A stretch of DNA of 64,000 nucleotides, from positions 1 through 64,000 of the IMG/VR virus record IMGVR_UViG_3300026484_000382. One strand, given 5' to 3'. The notes beneath the pieces are model-generated. The model did not search any database, was not told where the DNA came from, and saw nothing but the letters and a program-made list of their open reading frames with translations. Positions 1 through 15,986 of this stretch are shown here, one piece after another. This DNA comes from a virus. Made by a program: the position numbers and the translations under genes. Every line of letters begins with the position of its first letter. Position 1 is the stretch's first letter.

Positions 1-213
1 CCTGATAAAGCATTTGATGATACTACAGAGTTCTTTAAGATAGTTAAAAAAATAACATCTGACACTCATATTCCTATGAAAATAAAATTTAAATTCAAAG
101 TGCCTAAATGGGTAACAAGACAAACAGCAGGAATGATGCAACTTAAATTAACTTCTGTCGAAGATATTATATGGTATCATTATAAAAAATTTAAGACAGG
201 AGAATGGCTCTAA
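1..213 (+). CDS. 3' end of a hypothetical (possibly tail-associated) protein, partial
   Basis: Frame 1 is open from base 1 to TAA at 211-213 (...HIPMKIKFKFKVPKWVTRQTAGMMQLKL...GEWL); the C-terminal beta-strand pattern resembles the ends of ORFs 23116 and 26154. Confidence 0.6.
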   Translation, partial: PDKAFDDTTEFFKIVKKITSDTHIPMKIKFKFKVPKWVTRQTAGMMQLKLTSVEDIIWYHYKKFKTGEWL

Positions 214-214
214 C

Positions 215-338
215 CTTAAATGAAACTTAAGGCTTTTTACTGTTTTTACAGAAATCCTTAAGCAAACTTTAAGAAAAGTGTTGTTTTTCGTATATAGAGA
301 TAAGGGTAAACCCCCCACTTTTCTTAAATGAAACTTAA
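215..338. repeat. Intergenic direct and inverted repeats
   Basis: CTTAAATGAAACTTAA at 215-230 and 323-338; 13-bp inverted repeat TTTAAGAAAAGTG 268-280 / CACTTTTCTTAAA 316-328 enclosing GGGTAAACCC. Confidence 0.6.
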
Positions 339-363
339 ATTGTTAAAAAATTGGAGTATATTT

Positions 364-1515
364 ATGAATTTATTAAAAGAAGCAAAAACAAGATTGTGGA
401 AAGAAGTGGATAGGCTGCTAAATTCAGGAACAGAAGAAGATAGAGCAAAAGCAATGTCTATTCTAAGTCAAGTATCAGTTCATACTAATAGAAGAAATTC
501 TTTTTATGGAATGCCAACTAAAAATAGAAAGAAACTGTCTTTAAGAGAAATTAACAGTATTGTTAGTGAGAATGGTTCTAGTGAAAACTATAAGAAAGCA
601 TACAGAAAGAATTTAAAGTCAAAAGAAGATGAGTATTTTAAAGGTGGGAAAAACAGTGTTTTTGCTACTGATGAAAGAACCTTTTTGAAATATAAAAACA
701 GACTTCCTTTGAAGACATACGACTCTATAAAAGATGAAGTATTGTTTTCCCCAAAAGATGCAGAAGATAAAATAATGTTTTTCTCAAAAGACACTTTTAA
801 TAACCATAAGTTCAATGCTTTTAATTATTTAAAAAGCAAAAATTTATATTTTAAAAATAAAGAAGATGAAGTTAAAGCATTAGATAAATTATTCTTAGAT
901 CCAGAAGAGATGCAAAAAGAACTTCAATTGGAAAAGACTTTTGAAAAAGGACGCATTCCTTCATCTCCAGACAAAATAAATTTAATACACAAATATAAAA
1001 ATAAAAACCCAAACAATCCTGTATTCCCTGCTTCTACAGTAGGGGTTAGTAATTTAAAATATCAGTACAAAAGAAATAAATATTTTGTTCCTAAAAATGG
1101 TAAGGTGGTTTATGGTAGAAATGGATATGCTACAGCAATAGAGCCAGGATTGTATGCTACAGACCAGATGCCATTACTGTATCAAAGATATGCAGAAAAA
1201 GGCAAATTAACAGATGATGATATAAACAATATATTATCATCAGAACATATGATGACTCATTATAGAGGTTTTAAAATGGATGATGGTGATATCCCAGCAA
1301 TTATGAGGCTTAAAGGAACAAATTATTCTAAAAAATATAAGGATACTATTAAACCTGATGTAATAGACTCTGAAGATGAAGTAATTGTCCCTTTAAAGGA
1401 TTATAAAAATTATAATGTAGAACCTTTTCACAAAGGTAGAATTTTAGAAGATAAAATTCATTCAAAGATAATATCTGAATTTAACACAAATACAAAAAGG
1501 AATAGAAATGGCTAA
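364..1515 (+). CDS. LxKxA-leader protein, putative packaged effector; C-terminus possibly ADP-ribosyltransferase-like
   Basis: Start moved to ATG 364 behind GGAG; begins MNLLKEA; C-terminal VYGRNG...GLYATD...YA...PAIMRL...SEDEVIVP pattern. Confidence 0.6.
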   Translation: MNLLKEAKTRLWKEVDRLLNSGTEEDRAKAMSILSQVSVHTNRRNSFYGMPTKNRKKLSLREINSIVSENGSSENYKKAYRKNLKSKEDEYFKGGKNSVFATDERTFLKYKNRLPLKTYDSIKDEVLFSPKDAEDKIMFFSKDTFNNHKFNAFNYLKSKNLYFKNKEDEVKALDKLFLDPEEMQKELQLEKTFEKGRIPSSPDKINLIHKYKNKNPNNPVFPASTVGVSNLKYQYKRNKYFVPKNGKVVYGRNGYATAIEPGLYATDQMPLLYQRYAEKGKLTDDDINNILSSEHMMTHYRGFKMDDGDIPAIMRLKGTNYSKKYKDTIKPDVIDSEDEVIVPLKDYKNYNVEPFHKGRILEDKIHSKIISEFNTNTKRNRNG

Positions 1516-2602
1516 AAACAAAAAAAACAATAATTATACAGGCTTGGGAATAGGTGTTGCTGGTGGTGGTTTATACGGACTTGGTTCATATTTTAAAAAA
1601 GATGTTGGTAGACAACTAAAAGAGAGTACAAAAACACTGCAAGATATAGAAAAAGGAATAGCACAGGAAGAAAAAGATATTAATATGGGTAAAAAGTATA
1701 TAAAAGAAATAAAAGACAAATACGGAAATAGTGAGACTTTTGATACATTAAGTTTTCAATACAAAAATAAATTAAATAATAATATTATAACACTACCTGG
1801 GTTAATTAGGGAAAATAGAGACAATATTAAAAAGTTAAAGAAAGAAATAACCCTAAAAGAAAAGAATAGTATCAGTATATTAAGAAGAGAATTAGAAACT
1901 CAAGAAAGAGAAAGAAAAATGTTAATGGATGAAATAGAAAAAATAGATAAAACCATAAAGAATATGGATAAATTAAAAAATAATGTAAAACAAACTATGA
2001 AAAGCGTAAGTGAAGAAAAAAAGAGAATGGAAAATAGAATGATGACAGAAGCTGAATTTAATAGCTTTAAAAAGAATATAGACAAAAAAATTAAAGATAA
2101 TGAAAATCTCCATAAAATAATAAAAAAAGATAGGGAGTTAATTAAGCAAAGAGATGAAACAATTAGAAAGATTAAAAAGATAGACAAAAGAATAGAATCA
2201 TTAGAAAGACAAATTAGTAAAATAGGGCACAATAGTGTAAAAGAAACAGAAATAATTAATCTTAGAAGTAAGTATTCTAAATTAGAGAAAGAAAATCTAG
2301 ATTTAGTTGATAAATTAACAGATTCTAAAAGAGCACTAAGAGAGTTAGAAGAGTATTTAAAAAAAATTGAAAGCGAAGTTAATAATACTAGTGTGTTGGA
2401 TGAAGAATTACTTGCTTCGGCTCAAAAGGGATTGGAATATGAAAAAAACAATACTTTACCAACTTGGCAAAAAATAGTTAAAAACAATAACATTAAAATG
2501 AAAGCTGCTGATTATATAGGTAAAGCAGGTATAGGTGTAGGTATAGCAGGCGCTTCTAAGTTTATTTATGACAAGTATCAAAACAGAAAAAAATCCTTAT
2601 AA
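1508..2602 (+). CDS. Long coiled-coil protein with glycine-zipper helices at both ends
   Basis: GLGIGVAGGGLYGLG at N-terminus, ~300 aa K/E heptad coil, GKAGIGVGIAGASKFIYDKY at C-terminus. Confidence 0.8.
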   Translation: MAKNKKNNNYTGLGIGVAGGGLYGLGSYFKKDVGRQLKESTKTLQDIEKGIAQEEKDINMGKKYIKEIKDKYGNSETFDTLSFQYKNKLNNNIITLPGLIRENRDNIKKLKKEITLKEKNSISILRRELETQERERKMLMDEIEKIDKTIKNMDKLKNNVKQTMKSVSEEKKRMENRMMTEAEFNSFKKNIDKKIKDNENLHKIIKKDRELIKQRDETIRKIKKIDKRIESLERQISKIGHNSVKETEIINLRSKYSKLEKENLDLVDKLTDSKRALRELEEYLKKIESEVNNTSVLDEELLASAQKGLEYEKNNTLPTWQKIVKNNNIKMKAADYIGKAGIGVGIAGASKFIYDKYQNRKKSL

Positions 2603-2675
2603 ATAATGGGTTTTTTCTTGAAATTGTGTTATTTTTGTGATATTATTTTACAATAAATAAAACAAGGAGAAAAAA

Positions 2676-3689
2676 ATGTTTAAAAGAATGCTTAGTTTTG
2701 ACCCAAGGACAAGGATCCATATGAAACAAGAACTTACAAGAGAGGCAGCGATACTTGATTTTTTAAATCATATAGATGAAATAATTGAGAGTATAAGACA
2801 AGAAGAAAAAGAGTTTACAAAAAAAACACTTGAGACAGAGCAAGAAGAAAAAAAAGAATTTTGGAATGTTAGTGAAGCTATGACGATGTTTGAAGTGATA
2901 GAGAGAAGTAATGATAGAAAAATATCTTCTGTGTTGTTTCCTAAAGAAAATGGTCTTTTTGTAAAAGTTTCAAGAGCTGATAATGGAGTTGTTATTGTTA
3001 AAGATAACTACAGACCTAACAAAAAAGAGATGAATGCAGCAAGAAAAGTAAACCAAGAAGAAAACAAACCGAAAATAGAGAAAAACGAACCAAAAGAAGA
3101 GAATGCACCTAAAGAATTAAGAAACTTACTTGATAAAATGATTGCACATAAGCTACCAGAACCAGATGAGCCTGTTTTTAAAGGACCGCTTAAAGGTAAG
3201 TTTAGAAGACATGATATGCATAGTAGATTATCTAAAATTAGAAAATGTAAAAGTGGAGAGTGCAAACACAATGGTGAAGTAAAATATAAACAACCAGAAC
3301 CTGCAAAAACAAATTCTTATACTTGTGAATTTTGTGGAGCAGAGAAAGAACTTTTAGATGGTATTTGTGTTTTACCAAACAATGGAGCATTAAAAACAAA
3401 AACAGTATTATGTGACAAATGTTTTAATAAGTTATTTGGAGAACTTAAGCCTGCTATTGAGAGAAGATTAAAAATGGGTGTATCAGATAAAGCGCCAGAA
3501 CACTATAAAGCACTTATTCAACCAGTAGAAGCAATTAAAATGTGGGGATTAGATTTCACAATAGGTAATATTGTTAAATATGCTGCAAGAGTCGGTAAGA
3601 AAAAAGGTGTAGATCCAATAGATGATTTAAACAAAATTATTCATTATGCAGAAATTGCTAAAAAAGAAATCTTAAACAAAAGGGATTAA
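2676..3689 (+). CDS. DUF3310 (T7 gp1.7 nucleotide-kinase-like) domain protein with CxxC zinc finger
   Basis: PEHY..IQPVEAI...F..GNIVKYAARVGKK...DDLNKIIHY matches the DUF3310 pattern; CEFC and CDKC upstream. Confidence 0.75.
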   Translation: MFKRMLSFDPRTRIHMKQELTREAAILDFLNHIDEIIESIRQEEKEFTKKTLETEQEEKKEFWNVSEAMTMFEVIERSNDRKISSVLFPKENGLFVKVSRADNGVVIVKDNYRPNKKEMNAARKVNQEENKPKIEKNEPKEENAPKELRNLLDKMIAHKLPEPDEPVFKGPLKGKFRRHDMHSRLSKIRKCKSGECKHNGEVKYKQPEPAKTNSYTCEFCGAEKELLDGICVLPNNGALKTKTVLCDKCFNKLFGELKPAIERRLKMGVSDKAPEHYKALIQPVEAIKMWGLDFTIGNIVKYAARVGKKKGVDPIDDLNKIIHYAEIAKKEILNKRD

Positions 3690-3691
3690 AA

Positions 3692-4588
3692 ATGAATGCT
3701 CCAGGTACAATTACAACAAAAGGTGATGAAGTATATGCGGTTCTTCCGCGTATAGTTGCTAAAGGTGCTCCACAAAAAAGAATAACAGAAACAATCTATA
3801 AATTGGTTATGTATGTGTTTAGTTTAGTTGATATTAGAACTGATGATTTATCTGGTAAAAGAATAAAAATAAATGTTCAAGATCTAAATAAACATATGGG
3901 GAGAAAGACGCTTTTTAGTGCTGATGTTTTGCAGAGAGCTAAAAAAAAAGATGTAATTTTTAGTGATAAAAAAACAAATGTAAAAATATTTTCTGAAATT
4001 GGAGATTTTGAAGGTAATTATTTTGTTGTTTTACATGACTCACTAATAGATTATATTCAAGAAAACAAAGATAAAGAGAATATGTTCTTTAAAGTAGATA
4101 TAAAACCTGTATTACAAATGAATACAAAGAAAAATTATTACACATTAATGATGTATGTTTATCTATCTATATACCTTGAAGAGAAAGATGAAAAACTAAT
4201 TAAAAACTGTTTGTGTGAAGCAGGTGTAATTAAAGCTGCTTTGGGTGTAGAAAATTATAATATTTACTTATTAAAGAAAAATGTATTGTCTAGAATTACA
4301 GAAATATTCAATAAAGAACCTTACTCTAAAATATTTGTTACTTATGAAATAAATGGGCATAAAGTAGAATTGTTTGTTGCTAAAAAGAAATACTTCTCTG
4401 ATTATGATGATTTTTTTAATGAAACATTTAATAGAGCATACGGAGAAGGATTTAAAGAAAAAATTGCTTATATGTCAGAACAAGATAAGACTAATGAAGA
4501 TAAAAAATACAATGGTTTTGTGTTTGGGTTATTCACAGGTATATTTGTTGGTGGGATTGTTGGAGGTATTATTTCTGCTCTTTTATAA
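3692..4588 (+). CDS. Rep_3/RepB-like winged-helix protein with C-terminal hydrophobic helix
   Basis: FFKVDIKPVLQM..KNYYTLMMYVYL...IKAALGVENY....KKNVL..I..IFN......VTYEINGHKV follows the Rep_3 pattern; ends GFVFGLFTGIFVGGIVGGIISALL. Confidence 0.5.
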   Translation: MNAPGTITTKGDEVYAVLPRIVAKGAPQKRITETIYKLVMYVFSLVDIRTDDLSGKRIKINVQDLNKHMGRKTLFSADVLQRAKKKDVIFSDKKTNVKIFSEIGDFEGNYFVVLHDSLIDYIQENKDKENMFFKVDIKPVLQMNTKKNYYTLMMYVYLSIYLEEKDEKLIKNCLCEAGVIKAALGVENYNIYLLKKNVLSRITEIFNKEPYSKIFVTYEINGHKVELFVAKKKYFSDYDDFFNETFNRAYGEGFKEKIAYMSEQDKTNEDKKYNGFVFGLFTGIFVGGIVGGIISALL

Positions 4589-4686
4589 ACCAACAACTTC
4601 TTCTCCTTCTTTTTTCCTTACAAATAACATCATTTTGAATATTTGTTTTTTTTAATATAATTGTGTTAAAAAAAAGGAATAAAAAC

Positions 4687-5115
4687 ATGGAAAAACGATC
4701 ATTTACCTTAATAGAATTAATCTTTGTTATTGTGATTATTGGTTTATTGGCAGCAGTAGCAGTTCCTAAGTTCTTAACAACTAAAAAGAATGCAGAAACG
4801 GCTAATTTACCAAGTGTGGGACATCAAGTTGTAACTAAAGCAACAGAACAATACACTATAGTACAAGAAGAGAATTTGTCTAAAATTATAGATGAAGATA
4901 AAGACTTAAAAAGATATTATAATGAAATTAAAGATAATCCATTGTTTGATACTGATAAAAATTACGAAGAATTTAATATATCATGGCATTCAACAGGAGA
5001 AGTGTGTTTGAAAGTGTATAGAGATACTACTGTATATAAAATTAATAAAAATGATGAAGGTATTACATACGACTTCATTGTTAAAGAATTAAATACATCT
5101 TGTAATGCAGATTAA
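4687..5115 (+). CDS. Type IV pilin/pseudopilin-like protein with class III (prepilin) signal
   Basis: MEKRS|FTLIELIFVIVIIGLLAAVAVPKF with E at +5; C-terminal Cys pair; AAGGA RBS favours start 4687. Confidence 0.9.
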   Translation: MEKRSFTLIELIFVIVIIGLLAAVAVPKFLTTKKNAETANLPSVGHQVVTKATEQYTIVQEENLSKIIDEDKDLKRYYNEIKDNPLFDTDKNYEEFNISWHSTGEVCLKVYRDTTVYKINKNDEGITYDFIVKELNTSCNAD

Positions 5116-5161
5116 TTAAATTTTAAGTTAAAATTAAGAATTAGTTAGATATAATTCTATT

Positions 5162-5247
5162 GCTATGTATAATTATAGTCTTACAAGTGGTTCACCCCCT
5201 TTCCACTTGTTTTACCTACACTCAAAAAATATCCCCCTTATGTAAAA
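5162..5247 (+). ncRNA. Candidate small RNA with C/U-rich loops
   Basis: AGATATAAT at 5147-5155 upstream; stem ACAAGTGG 5183-5190 / CCACTTGT 5203-5210 with loop TTCACCCCCTTT; second CCCCCTT near 5233; no ORF. Confidence 0.4.
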
Positions 5248-5351
5248 TAAAATAAAAAAACTCTCTATATATAATGTTTTTTTGGTATAATTATAACAGT
5301 TATATGCTACAAAAATAAATGTAATAGCGTATAAAAAACAAGGAGAGAATA

Positions 5352-5741
5352 ATGAGTAATTTTACTGAGCCATTAGTTGTAGAATATTTAGACAACAACA
5401 AGTGGAAAGTTTGTAGAGAATTCAGTTACTACACATCAATACCGTATGATAATGTGATTGTTAATGAAACAAAAAACCCATATTGGATAACGATAAAAAA
5501 AGGGTTTACTACAGATTTCGCATCTATTCCAAGAGTATTCTGGAATGTTATGAGTCCTTACGACAAACATGCAAAAGCAGCTGTAATTCACGATTTTTTA
5601 TACAAGACCAGAGAATTGCCTAGAGAAATATGCGATAAGATATTCTTGGAAGGTATGGAAGTATTAGGTGTTTCTTGGTGGAGAAGAAATTTGATGTATG
5701 GTGCAGTTAGAATGTTTGGGAGAAGATATTATGGAAACTAG
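5352..5741 (+). CDS. DUF1353 family protein
   Basis: GFTTDFASIPRVFW...AAVIHDFLY...DKIFLEGM...GV.WWRR..MY.AVR.FG. Confidence 0.9.
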   Translation: MSNFTEPLVVEYLDNNKWKVCREFSYYTSIPYDNVIVNETKNPYWITIKKGFTTDFASIPRVFWNVMSPYDKHAKAAVIHDFLYKTRELPREICDKIFLEGMEVLGVSWWRRNLMYGAVRMFGRRYYGN

Positions 5742-6171
5742 AAGTAGAATAAATAGAATATTACCAACAAGTGAAATATTAAAACATAGTGAGTGTGTTA
5801 GTATGGATGCTTTTTTTGATGATTTGATTGAAGAGTTGTTTAGAGAGAATGTTGAAGTTTTGGATGATGTAAAACTAAGCACAGCGTTAATTAAAGATAT
5901 ATATGAAGAATCTGATATGAGGTTTGCAATAGAGATGATATCTGAATTGTTTCCACATGATGGTTTTTTAGTTAAAATAGAAATCCCAGTGCCTACGAAG
6001 ATAAAATACAATGCAGATATAGAAGAATATGAATGGGATGAATCGTTTTGTGTGCATAGTATTGTGTTTATGTATGTTGGCAGTTTAGATGATATAGAAG
6101 GCAAAATTAGCGAAGTAGAAGAAAAAAAGATTAAAGCTTTTATCGAAAAAAGAATAAAAGACTCAGAGTAA
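5731..6171 (+). CDS. Hypothetical acidic protein
   Basis: ORF in tightly packed operon; start METRSR chosen. Confidence 0.65.
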   Translation: METRSRINRILPTSEILKHSECVSMDAFFDDLIEELFRENVEVLDDVKLSTALIKDIYEESDMRFAIEMISELFPHDGFLVKIEIPVPTKIKYNADIEEYEWDESFCVHSIVFMYVGSLDDIEGKISEVEEKKIKAFIEKRIKDSE

Positions 6172-6380
6172 TGATAACAGTAGAAATATTCGATTTAAAA
6201 ATAAAAAATGTGGACTATGAAATGGTGAGAAAAAGTTTTGCAGGGATTGTGTATGGTAACAGTTCTCTGCCAGGCGATGTTTGGAGTGATGACAAAACAG
6301 AATACAATGGAACCTGTTCCGATAAAGAACTTAACGACTTTTTAGAAGAAATAGGTTGTGGAAGAGTGTTTGAGGAGTAA
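6171..6380 (+). CDS. Hypothetical protein
   Basis: TAATG overlap with the upstream gene. Confidence 0.65.
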   Translation: MITVEIFDLKIKNVDYEMVRKSFAGIVYGNSSLPGDVWSDDKTEYNGTCSDKELNDFLEEIGCGRVFEE

Positions 6381-6383
6381 ATA

Positions 6384-6590
6384 ATGCCGTATAGTTATAA
6401 AATAAACACATGTAAAAGAGTATCCATAATGTGTGGTAAATACGGAAAAGCATGTGTTGAAAATAAAACACAGCAGAGGGCCTTTGAGGCCCTTGAAAGA
6501 ATATTATGCCAAATGGCAAGAGATAGTTGTAAAAAGTACAGAAGAAAAAGAAAAGAATACAGAAACAGAAGAATGTTTAAAAGGAAATAA
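6384..6590 (+). CDS. Small basic Cys-containing hypothetical protein
   Basis: GAGGAG RBS; fills the gap exactly to the next start at 6592. Confidence 0.55.
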   Translation: MPYSYKINTCKRVSIMCGKYGKACVENKTQQRAFEALERILCQMARDSCKKYRRKRKEYRNRRMFKRK

Positions 6591-6591
6591 A

Positions 6592-7146
6592 ATGAAAAAA
6601 CACAAATCAAATAAAGGAAACAAAATGGAAAAAAAACATAAATCGAATGTTGAAGAAAAGTCAGGATTAATGTCTCAAGAGGAGATTGAAGCGTTATTAG
6701 AAGTTGTGGAAGAAGATGATTTACAACCTTTAAGTAATAATGGTGATAAATATAAACATAAACATGAAGATAAAATACATTGTCATATTCCAGATAAAAA
6801 ACCAATTTTTTTTGTGAATAATGTAAAACTAAAAAATACTACTGCCAATAGAATGGCGGAGATAGTTGATAGTTTTAATCCAAATACAATTAAAAAGGTA
6901 AAATTGATTTTAACTGGTTCTACTAATCATATGTGTGGAATAGGGTTGTTTTTATTAGTGGGAGATAGAGGTTATTGTGTTTCAAATATTTCAATTAGAT
7001 CATATATAGTTATAAAATCTACCTTATTTGAGAAAAATATTAAAGTAACAGAAACAATGTCTTGTTTAAAAATAGGTGATAATATGGAGATATATGAAAG
7101 CAAAATAACTTTCAAAAACAAATTAGTAGAAAAGAGTACAGAATGA
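6592..7146 (+). CDS. Protein containing a FliM N-terminal (CheY-binding)-like peptide
   Basis: AAGGA RBS before ATG 6592 (second in-frame RBS/ATG at 6625); LMSQEEIEALLEVVEEDD at 6667-6720. Confidence 0.7.
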   Translation: MKKHKSNKGNKMEKKHKSNVEEKSGLMSQEEIEALLEVVEEDDLQPLSNNGDKYKHKHEDKIHCHIPDKKPIFFVNNVKLKNTTANRMAEIVDSFNPNTIKKVKLILTGSTNHMCGIGLFLLVGDRGYCVSNISIRSYIVIKSTLFEKNIKVTETMSCLKIGDNMEIYESKITFKNKLVEKSTE

Positions 7147-7580
7147 GTAAGTTAGCATTTGATTATGATAATTTTAAGTTCGTAAAAACAGAAGATAAAA
7201 AAGATGAAGAAGTAAAAACACCTGTTTTAGCTTCTTTCCCTATGGCTTTAGGTAGAAGTATAGATGTAATATCTGAAGACGGAGAACTCTATATGAAAGG
7301 CATACAGAAAATTAAAATGTCCAATATGAGAATTACTTCTATCAGATGGAATTGTTTGTTTGGTGATAAAATTAAGCAACAAATGAGTGAATATGATAAA
7401 TTATCTGATGGGCAATTATATGATGTTGTAACAATACCTGACATAAACAATGAAATAGGTTTTACATATGTGTTTGGAAATAGTGAAAGTGCAAAAATAT
7501 TCATTAACTCTATGATGGATTTCGCTTCGTCTTTAGTGATAATGGGAAAAGTAAAAGAACAGGAAAGTGTTCATGAGTGA
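7143..7580 (+). CDS. Hypothetical protein
   Basis: ATGA overlap, 145 aa. Confidence 0.7.
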   Translation: MSKLAFDYDNFKFVKTEDKKDEEVKTPVLASFPMALGRSIDVISEDGELYMKGIQKIKMSNMRITSIRWNCLFGDKIKQQMSEYDKLSDGQLYDVVTIPDINNEIGFTYVFGNSESAKIFINSMMDFASSLVIMGKVKEQESVHE

Positions 7581-7764
7581 ATTTGAAAAACTATTTGGGA
7601 AACAGGGTAAAGATTGGGAAACAAAATCAGACTTAATAGCAAAAATCAGAGATGACTTTTTTGAACAGTTAGAACAATTTGTTCCCGGTAGTAGTTTGGT
7701 TAGTTCCGAAGAATGTACTTTATATGCTGTATATAAAACATTGAAAGAATGTAAAAATGGATGA
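7573..7764 (+). CDS. Hypothetical protein
   Basis: AGGA RBS; operon packing. Confidence 0.6.
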   Translation: MSEFEKLFGKQGKDWETKSDLIAKIRDDFFEQLEQFVPGSSLVSSEECTLYAVYKTLKECKNG

Positions 7765-7978
7765 TTTAAAAAAACAAAGATATTTGCAAAACTTTCAAAA
7801 TAGAATAGACGAATTGGAAGAACAGAAAGGTGTTTGTAAGGACAAAGAAAGATTGAATAGGATAGAACAAGAGCTGTATGCATATAAACAAGAAATAAGA
7901 ATGCTTACAGAAACAAAAGAAGAACCTAAAAATAATAAAAAAAGGAAAAGAAGATGTTTAAAGAAGAAGATTATATAA
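7757..7978 (+). CDS. Small coiled-coil hypothetical protein
   Basis: Operon packing, helical charged sequence. Confidence 0.6.
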   Translation: MDDLKKQRYLQNFQNRIDELEEQKGVCKDKERLNRIEQELYAYKQEIRMLTETKEEPKNNKKRKRRCLKKKII

Positions 7979-8142
7979 CAAAGAAAACAAATAAAATATT
8001 TGGTTTTATAGCAGGAGCTATTGTTACTGTTGTAGCTGCACAGGTTGCTTTTAATTTCCATCAAGATATAATCGGTTTTGCTTGCCTTATTGCCACTGCT
8101 GGATTTGCTGGTGGTCTTTGGATGGAATTAAGTTTTGAGTAG
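7954..8142 (+). CDS. Small two-helix membrane protein
   Basis: AAGGA RBS; two hydrophobic segments. Confidence 0.65.
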   Translation: MFKEEDYITKKTNKIFGFIAGAIVTVVAAQVAFNFHQDIIGFACLIATAGFAGGLWMELSFE

Positions 8143-8178
8143 AATTGAGTAAAGTTGATTGAATGTATTTATTTTTTT

Positions 8179-8202
8179 TGATACAATAAACAAAAAAAAG
8201 GA
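8179..8202 (+). promoter_or_regulatory. Extended -10 promoter plus RBS cassette
   Basis: TGATACAAT-AAACAAAAAAAAGGA, a layout shared with many cassettes in this window. Confidence 0.7.
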
Positions 8203-8208
8203 TAAACA

Positions 8209-8424
8209 ATGATTTCAAAAGGTTATGTTGAGTATAAAGGTGATATAGGACCAATTAAGGCTGGGTGGCCAGATTTAGGGACTTGTGGTGATGCAGGTTC
8301 AATTAAAGCTGGGTGGCCCGATATGGGAACTTGCAGTAAGATAGGTGATGGTGGAGATGCTTTAATGGCTAACACTGAATGGCCTCCTGCTTTAATGGCT
8401 AATACTGATTGGCCACCACTATAA
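8209..8424 (+). CDS. 71-aa repeat peptide, (IKAGWPDxGTC)x2 + (ALMANTxWPP)x2
   Basis: Own promoter/RBS; the repeats differ mostly at synonymous positions. Confidence 0.8.
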   Translation: MISKGYVEYKGDIGPIKAGWPDLGTCGDAGSIKAGWPDMGTCSKIGDGGDALMANTEWPPALMANTDWPPL

Positions 8425-8438
8425 GAGGAGTGATAAAA

Positions 8439-8993
8439 ATGAATAATAGAGAAAAAGAAAGAGATAGATTATCTCGAAATATTGAACTATTAAGCAATTC
8501 TATACCAGTAGGTCTTTCTATGGGTATAGGAGGATTAGCTTCTAAAAACAATAAGATGGTAGCAGCTGGTCTTGGTACTACAGTAGCAGGTGGGTTAATG
8601 ACACACGCTTATTGTGAAAAAAATAAAAAGAAACTAAAAGAAATATATGGTAAAAACTTTAGTTGCTCTGGTTCTAAAGACCCTGTAACAAAAAAACACA
8701 GGGTAATTTCAGCATTAGGTGGCGCTGGATTGTCTGCTGCTGGATTTTTAGCTTCTAAAGATAATAAATTATTAAGAAATATCTCTTTAGCTGGTGGTGG
8801 TATATCTGCTATTAGATTAGGGGCTGCATTACTTGGTAATGATAGGAAACTTAACGAAAACGAAAAAGATATGGATAAAGAACTAAAAAAAATATATAAA
8901 AAACAAGTGGAAACAGATAAAGCCTATAGAGAAAAATATAAAACATTGGAAGCATTAGACATGATAGGTGCGATTCCAACTAGTGCTTATTAA
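8439..8993 (+). CDS. Glycine-zipper multi-helix protein
   Basis: GAGGAG RBS before 8439; four G/A-rich segments arranged as two ASK(N/D)NK-linked hairpins. Confidence 0.75.
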   Translation: MNNREKERDRLSRNIELLSNSIPVGLSMGIGGLASKNNKMVAAGLGTTVAGGLMTHAYCEKNKKKLKEIYGKNFSCSGSKDPVTKKHRVISALGGAGLSAAGFLASKDNKLLRNISLAGGGISAIRLGAALLGNDRKLNENEKDMDKELKKIYKKQVETDKAYREKYKTLEALDMIGAIPTSAY

Positions 8994-9061
8994 TAAAAGG
9001 GATAATGATAAATGAAATAATTGGGTGGTCCACCACTTAACTTAAAGTTAAAGGATATAAG

Positions 9062-9391
9062 ATGAAAACTAAAAAACTATACAAAGTATATAATGTTGAA
9101 GATATTTCAGGAATTTGGAAACTTGCTGAAAAAGAACACGATAGTTCAAATTTAATTGGAGTTAGTCATTGCAGTAGTAAAGGTTTAGTAGATTATACAA
9201 TTTGGTTAGGAGATGTAAATGATTTTATTAAAGATAAGAAATATGTTAAATATCAATTTAATATAAATGATCGTCTTTCTGACAATATTGCATATACATA
9301 TAATGAATTAGAAGAAAAAGGCTTTAAAGTAAATACTATTATTGAAAACTCTCAAAATAAAGAATATCTTGATGTTTTTTATATTATTTAA
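9062..9391 (+). CDS. Hypothetical protein
   Basis: AAGGA RBS, 109 aa. Confidence 0.7.
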   Translation: MKTKKLYKVYNVEDISGIWKLAEKEHDSSNLIGVSHCSSKGLVDYTIWLGDVNDFIKDKKYVKYQFNINDRLSDNIAYTYNELEEKGFKVNTIIENSQNKEYLDVFYII

Positions 9392-9400
9392 GGAAAGAAA

Positions 9401-9547
9401 ATGACAGCACAAGATTATGCAAACAACACTCCACATAAACAACAAGATAATAGTAAATTAGGAGTAGGAATGCAGATAGGGGGGGGCTGGCAACAGCCGG
9501 AGGCAAACTTTATGATACTTTTAGAGATAAGGGAGAACAATGAATAA
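9401..9547 (+). pseudogene. Small glycine-zipper gene interrupted at a G8 tract (possibly phase-variable, OFF state)
   Basis: AAGGA RBS + ATG 9401; G8 at 9479-9486; with G9 the frame reads LGVGMQIGGGLATAGGKLYDTFRDKGEQ and stops at TGA 9541-9543 overlapping the next ATG. Confidence 0.6.
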
Positions 9548-10004
9548 AATAATCTGTTTCGATATAGATGACTGTATATTACCACACTACAATATGTTAC
9601 CTAAAGAGCATAGGTTGCAAATTTTTAAACTTAATCTTGAGCGACTCGTTCACTTGTGTCAACAAACAGAGGCTAAATTGTTTATGACTTCAAGTTGGGG
9701 GATGTTATTTAAAATAAATGACAATGGTTTGATTATTTTTAAAGATGAATTTGATTACGGAGATGAATTTGAGCAAGAAATTGTAGATGTTATGAATTCC
9801 TATTTACAACCTTATATAATAGGAGTAAGCTGTGGTGATAGGAGAGAAGATATTAAAATCCTATTATTACAAGAAGATATACTTGTTGTAGCCATAGATG
9901 ATATGGATTTGTCTGATATAAAAGACAAGAACTTTAAATATATCAATGTGGAAACTATGATTACTGATAGACAATTAAGAGAGATAAAACAATATTTTTC
10001 TTAA
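9540..10004 (+). CDS. HAD-family phosphatase (HAD_SAK-like)
   Basis: IICFDIDDCIL motif I, MTSSW motif II, VVAIDD motif IV. Confidence 0.8.
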   Translation: MNKIICFDIDDCILPHYNMLPKEHRLQIFKLNLERLVHLCQQTEAKLFMTSSWGMLFKINDNGLIIFKDEFDYGDEFEQEIVDVMNSYLQPYIIGVSCGDRREDIKILLLQEDILVVAIDDMDLSDIKDKNFKYINVETMITDRQLREIKQYFS

Positions 10005-10057
10005 TTCTACTTATTTTAAAAAAAACTTCTATTTATAATCTCTTTTTAAGTTTTTTT

Positions 10058-10066
10058 TGTTATAAT
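10058..10066 (+). promoter_or_regulatory. Extended -10 promoter of the rha operon
   Basis: TGTTATAAT after a T-tract. Confidence 0.65.
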
Positions 10067-10088
10067 TATTACTGATAAAAACATTTCG

Positions 10089-10185
10089 TTGTAGCATTTT
10101 GTTCTACAAAGAACATTTTGTGGAGGGTGGCACACTTGAGACCTACCCACCACCCTCTACAAAGTGTTTAATGTTGGTAGGTCTC
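10089..10185 (+). ncRNA. Structured leader RNA (19-bp stem plus pseudoknot) upstream of rha
   Basis: 10112-10130 pairs with 10150-10168 (two G-U, no mismatches); loop GAGACCTACC 10138-10147 is complementary to GGTAGGTCTC 10176-10185. Confidence 0.65.
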
Positions 10186-10225
10186 TTCCACACATTCTGC
10201 ACTTAATACATTTAAAGGAAACCTT

Positions 10226-10927
10226 ATGAAGCAAGAAGTTGTTAGTTTGAATGGGAAAAACATTAGGTTTGAAATAGCTACAGACAATGGTAATGATGTT
10301 GTGTTTACAGACAGCATAACTATCGCTGATGTGTTTGGTAAAAAACATAAAGTAGTTATTAGAGCTATAGAAGATGATGTTGCTTGTAACGAATTTTTAA
10401 CTGAGCATAAAATTGTGCCCAGTGAATACACAGATAGATCAGGTAAAAAAAACAAAATGTATTTACTTGATAGAGATGCTTTCTCATATTATGTAATGGG
10501 ATTTACAGGTGAAAAAGCAAAGAAGTGGAAGTTGGAATATATTAAAGCATTTAATAATATGGAAAAAACATTAAAACAAAAACAACAACAAAAACTACCT
10601 TCAAATCCAATGGAAATATTAGAACTTGTTTTTCAAGTGCAAAAAGACCATGAGAAGAAGTTAGTGGAAGTGGAAACAAAAGTTAAAGTTCTTGAAGACA
10701 CAAAAAGACTTGAAGGATGGCAAGAAAAAAAACTTATTGACTTAAAAAATCAAAAAGTATTTGCACTAGCAGGAGACAATAAAGAACTTGCTACAAAATT
10801 ACACAGAAGAGTTTGGAGTTTATTTAAAAAAAATTTTAGTTTACCTAGATATAATGAATTACCTGCGGTTAAATTCAATGAAGGTGTAATGTTTATTAAT
10901 AAAATAAAATTAGAAGATATGTTATAA
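10226..10927 (+). CDS. rha: Rha family phage regulator with ORF6C-like C-terminus
   Basis: TDSITIADVFGKKHKVVIRAIE...MYLLDRDAFSYYVMGFTGEKAKKWKLEYIKAFNNME; C-terminal FSLPRYNELP..KF. Confidence 0.9.
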   Translation: MKQEVVSLNGKNIRFEIATDNGNDVVFTDSITIADVFGKKHKVVIRAIEDDVACNEFLTEHKIVPSEYTDRSGKKNKMYLLDRDAFSYYVMGFTGEKAKKWKLEYIKAFNNMEKTLKQKQQQKLPSNPMEILELVFQVQKDHEKKLVEVETKVKVLEDTKRLEGWQEKKLIDLKNQKVFALAGDNKELATKLHRRVWSLFKKNFSLPRYNELPAVKFNEGVMFINKIKLEDML

Positions 10928-10938
10928 AAAGGATTAAT

Positions 10939-11463
10939 ATGGATGAATTAAAAGAATACAAATCTATTAAAGTAGTTAAAGCAAAACCAATGAAATATCA
11001 CGAAGCAGGTCATTGGGGATATGTTAGAGATTATGATGTGGGGAAAGACGAACAAGAAGGGTATTATGTTGAATATGAAGATGGTTACAAAAGTTGGAGT
11101 CCAAAAGAGGCTTTTGAGAAAGGTTATGTGGAGATAGAGAAAGAATCAAAAACATATGGAAATACTTGTGCTAATGCTGTAAAGAAAAATGTAAAAGATA
11201 TTAAGATTTGGGGTAATGGTGATTTGTTTGAATTAATAAGCAAAGCATCTAGTGAAAGTGAAGGTTGGATGAAATCAACAAAAGCTATGGAAATTCCAAG
11301 AATAGGAGTGGTTATTCAAGTTACTACTCAACAAGGTGATAATGTAGCTGAAGCTGTAACTTTTGTTCCTGGAGCTAAAATCGATAGAGAGTTGGAAACG
11401 GATGAGAATGGTAAAAAAATAGTTATATCAAGAAGAATTATAAAGGATTCAATGTGGAGTTAA
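10939..11463 (+). CDS. Two-domain protein; C-terminal domain resembles the Acb4 anti-CBASS nucleotide sponge
   Basis: GNGDLFELISKASSESEGWMKSTKAM...QVTTQQGDNVAEAVTFVPG (recalled Acb4-family pattern); N-terminal GYYVEYEDGYKSWSPKEAFEKGY domain. Confidence 0.6.
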   Translation: MDELKEYKSIKVVKAKPMKYHEAGHWGYVRDYDVGKDEQEGYYVEYEDGYKSWSPKEAFEKGYVEIEKESKTYGNTCANAVKKNVKDIKIWGNGDLFELISKASSESEGWMKSTKAMEIPRIGVVIQVTTQQGDNVAEAVTFVPGAKIDRELETDENGKKIVISRRIIKDSMWS

Positions 11464-12014
11464 AACAATATTTAAGAGATGGAAGAATACACACAGGGTT
11501 AGAAGTAACAAGATTGGATTTAGATAATCTGCTAAAGAAATATGACTTTATTGGTGTAGCAAAAGCAGACAAGCCTGCTATTGTGGAAGCGTTATCAGGA
11601 GATGTTGTTGGTGTAATTATGGGGGATATAAATAATATAGACGAGATACATAATAATGAAGAACCTATTGCAGAAAATCCAGATTGTTGGTTTGTTAGCA
11701 ACAGAGCGATGAAGCCATACAAATCATTAGATGGTGAGTTTAATATTGGTGAAGCAAAAGAATTATTGAAATTAGGTTACAGAGTGAGACATAAGCTCTG
11801 GAAAGATAGTTTTTTAATTTATGTGCCAGGAAGTAAATTTAAGGTAAACAGACCGCCTTTATTAGGTGTATTTGAAGAAGGTACGGAAGTGAATTATGAA
11901 GCCCATATCGATGTTGTTGATATTTGTCCTATAACACAAAAAATCTTTGTTAAACCTTATGTGTTTACACAAGATGACATAATGCGTTATAAATGGGTTA
12001 TAGAGAAAGAATAA
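11454..12014 (+). CDS. Two-domain protein with C-terminal DUF2829/Tad2-like sponge domain
   Basis: FNIGEAKELLKLGYRV...W...FLIYVPGSKFKVNRPPLLG...HID....PY..TQDDIM..KW matches DUF2829; GTG start behind AAGGA. Confidence 0.75.
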   Translation: MELKQYLRDGRIHTGLEVTRLDLDNLLKKYDFIGVAKADKPAIVEALSGDVVGVIMGDINNIDEIHNNEEPIAENPDCWFVSNRAMKPYKSLDGEFNIGEAKELLKLGYRVRHKLWKDSFLIYVPGSKFKVNRPPLLGVFEEGTEVNYEAHIDVVDICPITQKIFVKPYVFTQDDIMRYKWVIEKE

Positions 12015-12044
12015 TTTCTTTCTTTATAACTTAAAGGATTTAAA

Positions 12045-12245
12045 ATGTGCTGTGATAAAATAAAACAAATAGAAGTTGAAATAGGAATGTTGGATAGAAG
12101 GATTGCTACTTTGGAATATCGTGAAACACAAGTAAAGAAAAATGAAAGAGAGATAGAAGAAATTAAAAATGAATTAAAAGAAACTATCGACGAATTGTAT
12201 AGATTGGGTAATGAGTTCGAAAAAATCTACAAAAAAGGAAAATGA
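12045..12245 (+). CDS. Small coiled-coil protein
   Basis: AAGGA RBS; heptad pattern. Confidence 0.65.
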   Translation: MCCDKIKQIEVEIGMLDRRIATLEYRETQVKKNEREIEEIKNELKETIDELYRLGNEFEKIYKKGK

Positions 12246-12877
12246 TGGAAGTTTTAGAAATTGGTGCAATAAATAATGCTTTTAATAAAAAAGGAGAAAA
12301 GATGAATACAGTAAAACAATTAGAAGAATTAAGAAACAATATCTCTGAATGGGGTAGAAAAAATGGTATTACTATTAATGGTAAAGTAGAAGGACAAATG
12401 TTAAAACTTAACAGTGAAGCAAGTGAAATATCTGAAGCTATATTAGAAGGTGATGGTTCTAAATTTATTGATGCAATTGGAGATACTTTTGTTGTAATGG
12501 TTATGGTAGCAGATATCCTAAAAAGAGAACTAAATAGTGATGAGTTAGATTTGAGAATGGTTGGGTATGATAAAACGCTTGAAGAACTACGCGATGATAT
12601 TGATTTTGTAATATTACTTAAAATTCAGGTTGAATTAGGAGAACTTAATGATTTAATTGCAAAAGGAAGATATGAAACTTCTTTTACTACATTAAATAAA
12701 ATGTTAAGTGTTTTAAATGCTCTTGCAGAAGATAGTGATAATAAGTTAGTTGAATGTATTGAAGCGGCTTATAATGAAATTAAAGACAGAGTAGGTTTTT
12801 TAACTCCTGATGGGGTGTTTGTGAAAAGCACAGACCCAGAATATGAGAATGTAGTTAAGCAGTTTAAAGGCAAATAA
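12242..12877 (+). CDS. MazG-like nucleotide pyrophosphohydrolase (internally duplicated)
   Basis: QMLKLNSEASEISEAI...IDAIGD...ELGELNDLI...ECIEAAYNEIKDRVG...GVFVK; alternative start 12302. Confidence 0.8.
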   Translation: MMEVLEIGAINNAFNKKGEKMNTVKQLEELRNNISEWGRKNGITINGKVEGQMLKLNSEASEISEAILEGDGSKFIDAIGDTFVVMVMVADILKRELNSDELDLRMVGYDKTLEELRDDIDFVILLKIQVELGELNDLIAKGRYETSFTTLNKMLSVLNALAEDSDNKLVECIEAAYNEIKDRVGFLTPDGVFVKSTDPEYENVVKQFKGK

Positions 12878-12878
12878 C

Positions 12879-13067
12879 ATGGAAGACATGAGAATGAAAA
12901 TAATTATGGTCTTTGTAATAGTATATGCAATGGGATATGTTACATCAATTGCTTCTAATTATGTAAAAGGAACAGTATTAAAATTATTAGTTCCTTTTCT
13001 GTCTGGAATAATAAGTGGTGCTATCATTGGATATTTTACTAGAATAATGGTTGCATCATGTATGTGA
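12879..13067 (+). CDS. Small membrane protein
   Basis: Two hydrophobic helices. Confidence 0.6.
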   Translation: MEDMRMKIIMVFVIVYAMGYVTSIASNYVKGTVLKLLVPFLSGIISGAIIGYFTRIMVASCM

Positions 13068-13327
13068 TAAAAGATTTCAAAGGGACTAAATATAAAGCAA
13101 GAACTAAATTTGCTTGGTTGCCGAAACAGTTAGATGATGGCTATAAAGCTTTCTTCAGTTTTTATGTAGCCATTGAAAAACTTTGTTATCCATGTCAGGA
13201 TTTGCCTTTCTGGGTTGAGATATACTCAATGACATTGCCAGACATACCAGTGGATATAAAATCTGTATTAGAAGTAGAGCTTGAAGAATGTATAGAAAAA
13301 TTAAAAATAAAAGATAAGGAAAAATAA
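13058..13327 (+). CDS. Hypothetical protein
   Basis: KFAWLP motif; operon packing. Confidence 0.6.
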   Translation: MYVIKDFKGTKYKARTKFAWLPKQLDDGYKAFFSFYVAIEKLCYPCQDLPFWVEIYSMTLPDIPVDIKSVLEVELEECIEKLKIKDKEK

Positions 13328-13812
13328 TGCTAAAAAATAAAATTGTTAAAAAAGGTATGGATGCTTTAAAAGTGGGAACTGTAGTTGTGTTTAGATTACC
13401 TGCTATTACAAATGAAAATCATTTAGGGTATTGGCCCAAAGAAATTGTATCAGATAAAGATATAAAAGAAATAAAAAAATCTGTTGATAAGACAGAACCA
13501 TTAATTGGTGTTATTAGAAGAAGAATTGAAACTGATGACGGAATGACATTTGATGTTGCGTTTTTCACAAGAAGACATGATGGAACTATTTCCGGTTACA
13601 TAGAACTAAAAGAGGTTATGATTTGGAGATACTTTGTTGACCCTTGTAGTTCTGGAATACCACCTAAATGGTTTAAGGAAATTGTTAGAACATCTCAAAA
13701 AGAAGAAGGTTATTTTGTTGAAATTCCTGCCGATAAGATTCATTATCTAAAAGAATGTAAAAAGAAACCGAAATACGCAAAAGTTAAATATATTGTAAAG
13801 GATGAAAAATGA
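13327..13812 (+). CDS. Hypothetical protein
   Basis: TAATG overlap, AAGGA RBS. Confidence 0.7.
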   Translation: MLKNKIVKKGMDALKVGTVVVFRLPAITNENHLGYWPKEIVSDKDIKEIKKSVDKTEPLIGVIRRRIETDDGMTFDVAFFTRRHDGTISGYIELKEVMIWRYFVDPCSSGIPPKWFKEIVRTSQKEEGYFVEIPADKIHYLKECKKKPKYAKVKYIVKDEK

Positions 13813-14015
13813 AAGTAATATTAGAACACGACGAAATTTTAGATGCAATAGCAGAATATGCTGCTAAAAAGTTAAATGTAAAACCAAGTGAAATTACTAT
13901 TAGACTTAATGCAAGAAAAGGTAGAAGTTTTGATGCCGATATAGAAATGGTTGAGTATGTAAAAACTGATGATAAACCTTTAACAGATAATGTGTTAGAA
14001 GAGGAACATCACTAA
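13809..14015 (+). CDS. Hypothetical protein
   Basis: ATGA overlap, AAGGA RBS. Confidence 0.7.
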   Translation: MKVILEHDEILDAIAEYAAKKLNVKPSEITIRLNARKGRSFDADIEMVEYVKTDDKPLTDNVLEEEHH

Positions 14016-14647
14016 TGTTTGATTTCTTTAATGTAAAAAAACGAGTAAATGAGTTTGATGACTCTTTTATTCGTTTTAGGCTTTATCTGAACTTTATTTA
14101 TGCAATAGGTCTTGCTTTTGCATCACCTGTATCTACAGCTCTTAAAGGGATAGAATTTCAAGGCATTTTGTGGTTAATTCCATTTTTTACATTACTTGGT
14201 GTAATCCTATCTAAATACACTGAATTCCTTGTTAAGAAGTTAACGATACAAATTGCTCATAAATTAATAGGAGTATCTACATTGCTTATAGTTTTTATTC
14301 CATTTATTTATGCTTATAATCACTTTTTAGCAGCCATATATCTATCTGCATTGATTGTTTTTGATGGATTGATATTTGGTGTTTATGGTGTATTTTTAAC
14401 TAACTACATAACAAAAATTAATCCCGAGTTGATAAGCAAATATCAAACAACAAGAATTCATGTTTGGGCAGATGGGGCTTTAATAGGAGGAGTTTTAGCG
14501 TTATTTATCATAGGTAATGATGATATTTGGTATGGAATGTTAGCAGCTGCTGTTGTAGATACAACTATTGTAATAATGTTTATAAATAATTACAAACATA
14601 TAAAAGACATAAAAGAAGAGGAATACAAAATAAAGGATAAAAAATGA
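14015..14647 (+). CDS. Six-helix membrane protein (half-MFS-like)
   Basis: About six hydrophobic segments; spacing like one MFS half. Confidence 0.6.
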   Translation: MFDFFNVKKRVNEFDDSFIRFRLYLNFIYAIGLAFASPVSTALKGIEFQGILWLIPFFTLLGVILSKYTEFLVKKLTIQIAHKLIGVSTLLIVFIPFIYAYNHFLAAIYLSALIVFDGLIFGVYGVFLTNYITKINPELISKYQTTRIHVWADGALIGGVLALFIIGNDDIWYGMLAAAVVDTTIVIMFINNYKHIKDIKEEEYKIKDKK

Positions 14648-15420
14648 TTAGAGAAATAGAATTACTAGGAAACGCAGGAGCATTTGATTTTGATAAGGTG
14701 TCATCAAGTTTCTTAATGAGAAAAGAAAATGATTCCCTTGCACTTATTGATTGTGGACACGGAGTAAATAATGTATTAAAAAAGAGAGGTCTTATAGGGC
14801 AAATCGAGGAAGTTTATATCACTCATACTCATTTTGACCATATAGCTGATTTAGAAGGTTTAATTTATTGTAGATATTTTGTTTACGGTAAAAAAACAAC
14901 TATTAGAACATCAACTACTATTATTGAAGAGTTAAAAAACATATTTGGTAATAGATTTGATACAGAATATTTTAATGGTGAGAATATTCCTGCTCGAATG
15001 GTTGAATATAAAAAAGTAGGAAAGTGTAATGACTATAGACATGGAGATTATGCAGAAGAGTGTTATTTTGATGTAAATCATGGAACTATGAATGCTGTTG
15101 GGTTTAAATTTGTGTCTTATAAACAAGCAGATGGTTATAAAAAAGCAAACAATGTAGTTATAGTATCAGGAGATACAAAAGCTTGTAAAACAATACTTAA
15201 TGAGATTGAAACAATGCCGCAGTGGGTAAATGGTAAATTTATTGTTTTCCACGATTACAGTATGTTTAATAATCCTTGTAAGAATATTCATATGTGCGAG
15301 ATTGATTATGATTTAATGTATGAGAAAGCAGTAGAAGAAGCTAAAGAAAAATGCAAAGATTTTCAACTTTTATTATATCATGATAACTTTAATAATAAAT
15401 TACATAAGGTAGTATTATGA
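14644..15420 (+). CDS. Metallo-beta-lactamase-fold hydrolase, Apyc1/RNase Z-like
   Basis: LIDCGH, ITHTHFDHIADLE (HxHxDH), SGDT, VFHD...H, LYH. Confidence 0.85.
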   Translation: MIREIELLGNAGAFDFDKVSSSFLMRKENDSLALIDCGHGVNNVLKKRGLIGQIEEVYITHTHFDHIADLEGLIYCRYFVYGKKTTIRTSTTIIEELKNIFGNRFDTEYFNGENIPARMVEYKKVGKCNDYRHGDYAEECYFDVNHGTMNAVGFKFVSYKQADGYKKANNVVIVSGDTKACKTILNEIETMPQWVNGKFIVFHDYSMFNNPCKNIHMCEIDYDLMYEKAVEEAKEKCKDFQLLLYHDNFNNKLHKVVL

Positions 15421-15872: not shown

Positions 15873-15884
15873 ATGTTTCCCTTT

Positions 15885-15986
15885 TTAAGGTTCTATTTTA
15901 CACTTCCAATTAAATTCCCCTAAAAATCTTTTAAACTTCTGAAGTTTTACATTTATTCTTTTACATTGTTTTTTTAGTTTTGGCAT
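15885..15986 (-). CDS. 33-aa basic peptide MPKLKKQCKRINVKLQKFKRFLGEFNWKCKIEP (not in ORF track)
   Basis: AAGGA RBS, own minus-strand TATAAT at 16018-16023, paralog at 17963. Confidence 0.75.
   Translation of the reverse strand: MPKLKKQCKRINVKLQKFKRFLGEFNWKCKIEP

Follow-up and report, generated by a model that had tools for sequence, protein, structure and literature searches.

Why does a phage protein carry what looks like the N-terminal peptide of FliM, the flagellar switch protein to which the phosphorylated chemotaxis regulator CheY (CheY-P) docks? This question is raised by a gene at positions 6592–7146 (+ strand) of the IMG/VR virus record IMGVR_UViG_3300026484_000382, of which we analysed the first 64 kb (hereafter ‘the window’; guanine-plus-cytosine (GC) content 28%); the full record measures 74.7 kb and has a CheckV completeness estimate of 46%. 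An earlier note on this DNA had read the peptide as a viral mimic of the CheY-P docking segment of FliM, had proposed that the protein acts as a CheY-P decoy or as a switch-associated protein, and had pointed to a host from the Campylobacterota. The present analysis supports the mimic, in that the peptide is a specific and conserved look-alike of the ‘EIDAL’ docking segment of FliM, and it supports the host, while it lends no support to a switch-associated protein. We suggest that this protein of a hydrothermal-vent phage, with its copy of the FliM N-terminus, probably interferes with the control of swimming in its host. At the level of sequence comparison, the proposal is built on (i) the specificity of the peptide, (ii) its placement within the protein, (iii) its selective conservation, (iv) the conservation of the docking residues of CheY, and (v) the recurrence of the peptide on unrelated phage proteins.

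The gene product comprises four segments, all encoded on the + strand: a lysine-rich, weakly conserved leader (6592–6666), the FliM-N-like peptide L26–P46 (LMSQEEIEALLEVVEEDDLQP; 6667–6729), a linker of variable sequence and length rich in Asn, Lys and His (residues 47–59; 6730–6768), and a C-terminal α/β domain without known family or fold (residues 60–176; 6769–7119). According to the list of open reading frames (ORFs) and the sequence, the stretch L26–D43 (LMSQEEIEALLEVVEEDD) of the peptide is encoded by positions 6667–6720, which is where the motif had been placed before. In order to see where such a peptide occurs in cellular genomes, DNA able to encode its 11-residue core QEEI[DE]ALLEVV was sought in one genome per species for 185,579 prokaryote species (596 Gb), and at least 120 loci were found. 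Among the matches listed, 120/120 are FliM N-termini, with the core occupying residues 7–17 of ~355-residue proteins that start with MA[DE]ILSQEEIDALLEVV[DE].., and every one of the 120 genomes belongs to the Campylobacterota (Campylobacter, Helicobacter, Sulfurospirillum, Arcobacter, Wolinella, Nautiliaceae/Nautiliales and unclassified Campylobacterales). One of the matched proteins, L008, is assigned as FliM by the equivalog model TIGR01397 (347 bits, cut-off 220). The extended motif thus appears, among the matches listed, essentially private to FliM of Campylobacterota, and the N-terminus which the earlier note had given for FliM of Helicobacter and Campylobacter turns out to be correct.

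The match of the viral peptide to FliM is beyond chance. A single occurrence of the back-translated pattern SQEEI[DE]ALLEVV in the window contrasts with 0/100 dinucleotide-preserving shuffles thereof, even when two mismatches are allowed; by chance, none is expected in the window. The peptide is identical to the best FliM N-termini at 14/18 residues, and at 14/21 residues to FliM of the Nautiliales metagenome-assembled genome (MAG) G003, and it preserves both the consensus and the amphipathic spacing of the FliM N-terminus (L-M-S-Q-E-E-I-E-A-L-L in the phage versus I-L-S-Q-E-E-I-D-A-L-L in FliM). The likeness is not confined to this core and spans 21–23 residues, including a tail of the type found in Nautiliales. 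Alignment of the phage family with 25 FliM sequences using hhalign, a comparison that had been proposed with the original observation, yields 22 matched columns corresponding to FliM 3–24 (probability 94.7%, E-value 5.8e-8) and nothing elsewhere. The motif protein has no Pfam match at E≤1 to the FliM middle domain PF02154, and none to the SpoA/FliN domain PF01052, while a FliM homologue from another phage contig (L211; see below) and the gene next to it served as positive controls and gave 71 and 62 bits, respectively. Since the alignment is confined to FliM 3–24, we consider the viral segment to be a grafted peptide and the protein not to be a FliM homologue; devoid of the two domains that build the switch, it does not support the idea of a switch-associated protein envisaged earlier. 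No second copy of the motif was found in the 74.7-kb record.

The peptide also contributes to the identification of the host. After its acidic run the phage peptide ends in D-L-Q-P, and a hydrophobic-x-Pro ending after the acidic run is likewise present in eight of the sampled FliMs (L008, L013, L020, L079, L086, L099, L102 and L118), every one of them with the label Nautiliaceae or Nautiliales. The window also contains a type IV pilin-like gene (4663–5115, + strand; N_methyl motif PF07963), which is 79% identical at the nucleotide level, over 217 nucleotides, to a gene (G003:C6) of G003, a MAG labelled ‘uncultured Nautiliales bacterium’, and its product is 60% identical to the G003 protein over the whole 140 residues, the variable globular part included. 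Judged by this similarity, the pilin-like gene is probably a host-derived moron and as such a host pointer. In addition, the 28% GC of the window fits a host from the Nautiliales, and 94–95% of the sampled words of window 5300–9300 are present in two hydrothermal-vent metagenome studies from 2018. Based on the tail of the motif, the pilin gene, the GC content and the vent metagenomes, we conclude with moderate confidence that the host is a vent-dwelling, Nautiliales-type member of the Campylobacterota. The host phylum inferred in the earlier note from the motif is thus in accord with the genome scan, and tail, pilin gene and habitat narrow it to an order. When CRISPR (clustered regularly interspaced short palindromic repeats) spacers were sought, 121 genomes from the order of the host gave short near-exact matches to window 1–20000, but none of these was flanked by repeats, so that this part of the window yielded no spacer match.

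How, then, has the peptide been treated by evolution? The family consists of the window protein and five metagenomic homologues (P0002–P0006), which are 55–70% identical. A full HMMER (phmmer) pass over 1.8 billion representatives returned this family only, plus P0007, a K/E-rich repeat protein of 2135 residues that was matched 11 times and was rejected as a low-complexity artefact. Within the family, conservation was expressed as mean pairwise identity among the six members, which amounts to 0.39 for the segment preceding the peptide (residues 12–25), 0.85 for the peptide itself (residues 26–46), 0.41 for the linker (residues 47–66) and 0.68 for the folded C-terminal domain (residues 67–178). 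Functional short linear motifs classically stand out in just this way, as conserved islands within arms that are disordered and evolve quickly. At its hydrophobic positions the peptide reads L, I, A, L, L, V and V throughout the family, and its polar positions vary in P0002 only, which has SKEVIK where the others have SQEEIE. The homologues hence keep the motif, a point on which the initial reading had been made to depend.

These data bear on the simplest alternative, that there is no mimicry at all and that the peptide is either a generic acidic amphipathic helix or what is left, without function, of a captured piece of fliM. Short helices of the type S/T-Q-E-E-I-D-A-L-L are indeed common in unrelated viral proteins: when IMG/VR was scanned for the 9-residue core [S/T]QEEI[DE]ALL, 57 loci were obtained, and most of these are internal helices in unrelated proteins, so that the short core has no diagnostic value by itself. 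It also suits this alternative that P0002 tolerates changes at three polar positions. However, the 11-residue core is FliM-specific in all 120 genome matches listed, the likeness extends over the length and into the Nautiliales-type tail as described above with a chance expectation of zero in the window, no other part of this fast-evolving protein is as well conserved as the peptide, and the peptide is met again at the start of unrelated proteins from phages whose hosts possess the same FliM. Taken together, these observations leave us with very little expectation that mimicry is absent.

The predicted structure of the protein is consistent with a peptide displayed on a flexible arm. In an AlphaFold2 model built on the six sequences, residues 1–58 have a predicted local distance difference test score (pLDDT) below 50 (30–40 in the leader, and likewise below 50 in the linker), with a helix at residues 29–40, that is, in the peptide. 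The arm carrying the peptide is thus predicted to be disordered. Residues 60–176, on the other hand, form a confident α/β domain with pLDDT values of 80–92, and the earlier description of a flexible N-terminal region ahead of an unrelated domain is well matched by this model. The identity of the domain is more elusive. Neither Pfam nor PHROGs provided a family for the motif protein, and nothing useful emerged from searches of the PDB with the sequences of the whole protein and of the peptide, from a search for longer proteins sharing words of the peptide, or from a search of IMG/VR for relatives of the whole protein; tblastn against 50,697 phage records of GenBank gave no significant match. 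Foldseek searches of the PDB and BFVD with the C-terminal domain returned no match at E≤0.001, and a wide VIA-align search gave a best Z-score of 5.7, which is under the noise level stated for that tool, with weak and heterogeneous matches to two-layer sandwiches resembling FtsH-N, L38e and SRP14. Structures of CheC and of the FliM middle domain were not among the top fold matches, where according to the tool a family that is not listed is not thereby excluded, and no Pfam or NCBIfam-type match to a CheC-like domain was detected in the motif protein.

The presence of a second, folded domain invites the thought that the peptide mimics FliM-N for the sake of other or broader clients, such as the receiver domains of CheV or of CheA–receiver (CheA-REC) fusions, or that it serves as an adaptor delivering a client to an activity of the C-terminal domain, for example, dephosphorylation or degradation. 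The architecture parallels that of FliY/CheC-type proteins, in which an EIDAL peptide brings CheY-P to the attached domain (PMC12826062), the C-terminal domain is conserved at the level given above, and receiver domains are numerous in the candidate host genomes, CheA-type fusions included. It speaks against this idea that the domain matches neither CheC, CheX, the FliM fold nor any other family, and that a CheC-type active-site motif was not seen by eye in the family alignment. We therefore regard such broader or catalytic roles as rather unlikely, albeit less so than the other alternatives weighed here.

What would the peptide bind in the first place? CheY-P binds to the N-terminal EIDAL motif of FliM in order to switch the motor (PMC6946799), and the key salt bridge of this complex is formed between FliM Asp12 and CheY Lys119 (bioRxiv 10.1101/762922). 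The genome of G003 encodes a 125-residue single-domain response regulator, the best solved relative of which is H. pylori CheY1 (3gwg, E-value 3.7e-58), and across 30 CheY orthologues of the same order, the residues that correspond to Tyr106, Lys109 and Lys119 of E. coli CheY do not vary (with numbering taken from PDB alignment ranges, Tyr106 and Lys119 correspond to Y102 and K115 in CheY of the host order). On the side of the peptide, the position of FliM Asp12 is occupied by Glu in 5/6 members of the phage family and by Lys in P0002. From the residues kept on both peptide and CheY it follows that either partner retains its determinants of canonical docking, apart from a single conservative exchange.

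It is thus tempting to propose a modular mimic, in which a FliM-N peptide on a disordered arm docks CheY-P and competes with the motor, be it as a decoy or as an adaptor; in our judgment the case for this specific reading is about evenly balanced. In an infected cell of the Nautiliales type, the arm would dock as a helix on the α4–β5–α5 face of CheY-P, as FliM-N does, and would then compete with the ~40 copies of FliM per motor. CheY-P so intercepted might either be sequestered or be handed to an activity of the C-terminal domain, which may alternatively add avidity. Given that the H. pylori motor rotates counter-clockwise by default and that CheY-P raises its clockwise bias (PMC7834020), the motor would be expected to revert to default counter-clockwise rotation, and the cell would stop reversing and steering. 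The phage might benefit from blocking flagellum-dependent superinfection or from losing fewer progeny to cells already infected; alternatively, the swimming state might be fixed and the infected cell be kept from tumbling or relocating. Binding, competition with the motor and benefit to the phage are all inferred.

Several observations weigh against this proposal. First, the phage family has Glu at the key acidic position, where Asp is invariant in the sampled FliMs. Second, P0002, the closest homologue of the window protein, has Lys there and two more changes (SKEVIK), which should weaken canonical docking. Third, the phage peptide follows 14–25 basic residues, while FliM and the other phage proteins start it at residue 3–5. 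Fourth, the fold searches provide no functional clue for the C-terminal domain. Fifth, at the nucleotide level the coding sequence of the phage peptide agrees with host fliM at 42/54 positions, at most 39/44, a level that shared residues and AT-rich codons would already account for, so that capture from host fliM is not demonstrated thereby. Finally, FlhG, a MinD-like ATPase, has been reported to act at the same FliM segment (PMC12826062), and mimicry alone can thus not name the target.

The last point deserves to be considered in its own right, since a peptide that titrates FlhG would disturb flagellar number, completion of the C-ring or cell division instead of steering. FlhG binds the FliM N-terminus in monotrichous bacteria, during assembly of the C-ring in polar flagellates (PMC12826062). 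In C. jejuni, FlhG controls both flagellar number and the division site, keeping cell division from the poles, and C-ring proteins affect its localisation (PMC6946799). It would also suit a partner which reads beyond the contacts made by CheY that the copy extends over the entire conserved segment of FliM, with the acidic LEVVEEDD tail beyond the EIDAL core included. The same authors, however, did not detect a stable interaction between FlhG and the C-ring in C. jejuni (PMC6946799), and binding of CheY is the universal and structurally defined function of the motif. FlhG, the main alternative target, strikes us as an unlikely one, and its reported binding at this segment makes the CheY-P decoy the leading reading and not the sole one.

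The length of the leader, and with it the distance of the peptide from the N-terminus, depends on the start codon. The gene reaches from an ATG at 6592 to a TGA at 7144–7146 and then encodes 184 residues, or 173 residues when read from a second ATG at 6625. The two candidate starts result from a 33-nucleotide tandem duplication (window 6581–6646), through which ribosome-binding site, ATG and initial codons are all present twice (MKKHKSNKGNK / MEKKHKSN..), and a AAAGGAAA-type ribosome-binding site is accordingly found ahead of each ATG. In a syntenic metagenomic locus, L172, a single copy is present, and the DNA alignment shows a 33-nucleotide gap opposite the duplication; the start in L172 and in the homologues P0002 and P0004 is the equivalent of 6625. 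As L172 does not have the duplication, the conserved start is the equivalent of 6625, from which the motif begins 14 residues from the N-terminus. A longer reading of 237 residues from a GTG at 6433 was rejected, because that DNA represents a 68-residue, Cys-rich basic ORF in another frame, and this latter frame is backed by an orthologue and a diverged paralogue in L172.

Does the peptide occur in other phages? Several low-GC phage contigs encode small proteins with a FliM-like peptide at the extreme N-terminus. One group, named here after gene CP21_042 of Campylobacter phage CP21, comprises proteins of 121–128 residues which start with MA[QM]ILSQEEID[AE]LL, nearly exactly the FliM N-terminus of the host. 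When searched by tblastn, this family is found in 29 GenBank records, all of them Campylobacter phages and all annotated ‘hypothetical protein’, from Firehammervirus CP21, CP220, CPt10 and CP20, from the CP81/NCTC12673 group (PC14, F-series) and from DA10. It hence spans three unrelated phage groups, including the unrelated 35-kb phage DA10; members are located, for example, at L193:2538-2900 (CP21_042 itself), L214:577-960 (NCTC12673) and L231:3501-3884 (DA10). Only 12–24 residues of this family align with the window protein in BLASTP, namely at window protein residues 26–49, that is, the peptide, and no homology of the window protein to the ~100-residue helical body of the CP21_042 family was detected by BLASTP. 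We also observed that CP21_042 aligns weakly with FliM residues 1–90 when BLASTP is run without composition correction.

Two further viral contigs carry longer counterparts. The 181-residue protein encoded at L191:4741-5283 (contig IMGVR_UViG_3300026512_000010; 64 kb, GC 23%) starts with ..PEILTQEEIEALLEVIEDETELP, contains the peptide TQEEIEALLEVIEDE..LP, and gives weak alignments to FliM and to the FliM-like protein of L211 over about 90–150 residues; genes resembling RNA ligase, HD+AAA kinase and radical-SAM proteins are located nearby. The protein of L211 (L211:2260-3296, together with a FliN-like gene; contig IMGVR_UViG_3300028534_000001; 222,650 nucleotides, GC 21%) has 272 residues, starts with MADIMSQEEIEAFLEMVEEDDIQP, carries the peptide MSQEEIEA[LF]LE[VM]VEEDD[LI]QP and, scoring 71 bits on PF02154, is a true homologue of FliM. 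Its gene is overlapped and directly followed by one for a FliN-like protein (72 residues; PF01052, 62 bits), so that L211, if the contig is truly viral, represents a phage-borne pair of flagellar switch genes. A RlaP-type nucleotidyltransferase adjoins this pair. With the CP21_042 family and the proteins of L191 and L211, the window protein shares only the peptide. Phages of Campylobacterota thus display a series, which leads from a FliM–FliN pair via N-terminal fragments of FliM to the bare peptide on a foreign domain, and which suggests, by inference from these sequences, that capture of fliM was followed by loss or exchange of domains.

The stop codon of the motif gene overlaps the ATG of a gene for 145 residues (7143–7580, + strand; ATGA), with which it is probably co-translated. 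L172 shows the same order, with this gene 3′ of the motif gene. The homologues of this product (P0013–P0016) are 86–90% identical, with one at 62%, as compared with 55–70% for homologues of the motif protein. The 145-residue product has no Pfam match, and its AlphaFold2 model is of low confidence (pLDDT 52) and too poor for a fold search. On the 5′ side, the 68-residue Cys-rich basic ORF mentioned above (6384–6590, + strand) ends with a stop 2 nucleotides before the ATG at 6592. Its protein has a very basic tail (..CQMARDSCKKYRRKRKEYRNRRMFKRK) and no family assignment, and L172 holds the gene twice, as diverged tandem paralogues at L172:264-479 and 489-695. The small upstream genes also include one for a DUF1353 protein (window 5352–5741; PF07087, 101 bits), for which PHROG 1158 gives ‘tail assembly chaperone’.

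Mimicry of short linear motifs is well known in eukaryotic viruses. A phage copy of the FliM N-terminus was not described in the literature that we searched, the coverage of which was incomplete. If the peptide binds CheY-P, the window protein would be a phage product that antagonises chemotaxis signalling of bacteria by such mimicry. More broadly, we tentatively suggest, with a conviction that falls slightly short of balanced, that phages of Campylobacterota, from those of vent Nautiliales to those of C. jejuni, have repeatedly put the FliM-N peptide on unrelated carriers, and that these may constitute a hitherto undescribed class of chemotaxis inhibitors or adaptors which would capture CheY-P (and possibly FlhG) and control the direction of the motor, flagellar assembly or division; the window protein would then be one type of carrier, equipped with a domain that is new at the level of the fold. 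The same peptide is present, unannotated, in the cultured Campylobacter phages CP21, CP220, NCTC12673, CP81 and DA10, the hosts of which are genetically tractable. If the proposal is true, the peptide would provide (i) a natural and portable CheY-P-binding module, (ii) a sequence-based predictor of the host, with the tail of the motif separating Nautiliales from other Campylobacterota, and (iii) a handle on the question why flagellum-dependent phages manipulate motility.

Like the window protein, members of the CP21_042 family are small phage proteins with a FliM-N peptide and hosts from the Campylobacterota, but they do not have the LEVVEEDD tail, their motif is located at the extreme N-terminus, and the remainder is unrelated. 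The proteins of L211 and L191 share with the window record nearly the same N-terminal peptide and their origin from low-GC phage contigs; L211, however, encodes a real FliM domain along with a FliN partner, and the L191 protein aligns with FliM over a longer stretch, whereas the window protein has the peptide only. FliY/CheC-type proteins of Firmicutes likewise combine a second domain with a docking peptide for CheY-P that is borne on a flexible arm (PMC12826062). The second domain of these proteins is a CheC-like phosphatase, whereas neither such a domain nor SpoA was detected in the window protein, which is viral and not a component of the motor. FliM itself differs from the phage protein in having the PF02154 middle domain and the FliN/SpoA domain, in presenting its peptide at residues 3–5 and not after a basic leader of 14–25 residues, and in having Asp at the salt-bridge position and Ile-Leu before Ser, where the phage peptide has Glu and Leu-Met. 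Yet the FliM N-terminus of the Campylobacterota type and the phage peptide both lie in a disordered arm at the N-terminus, and they agree in hydrophobic pattern, in acidic tail and, for Nautiliales, even in the hydrophobic-x-Pro ending.

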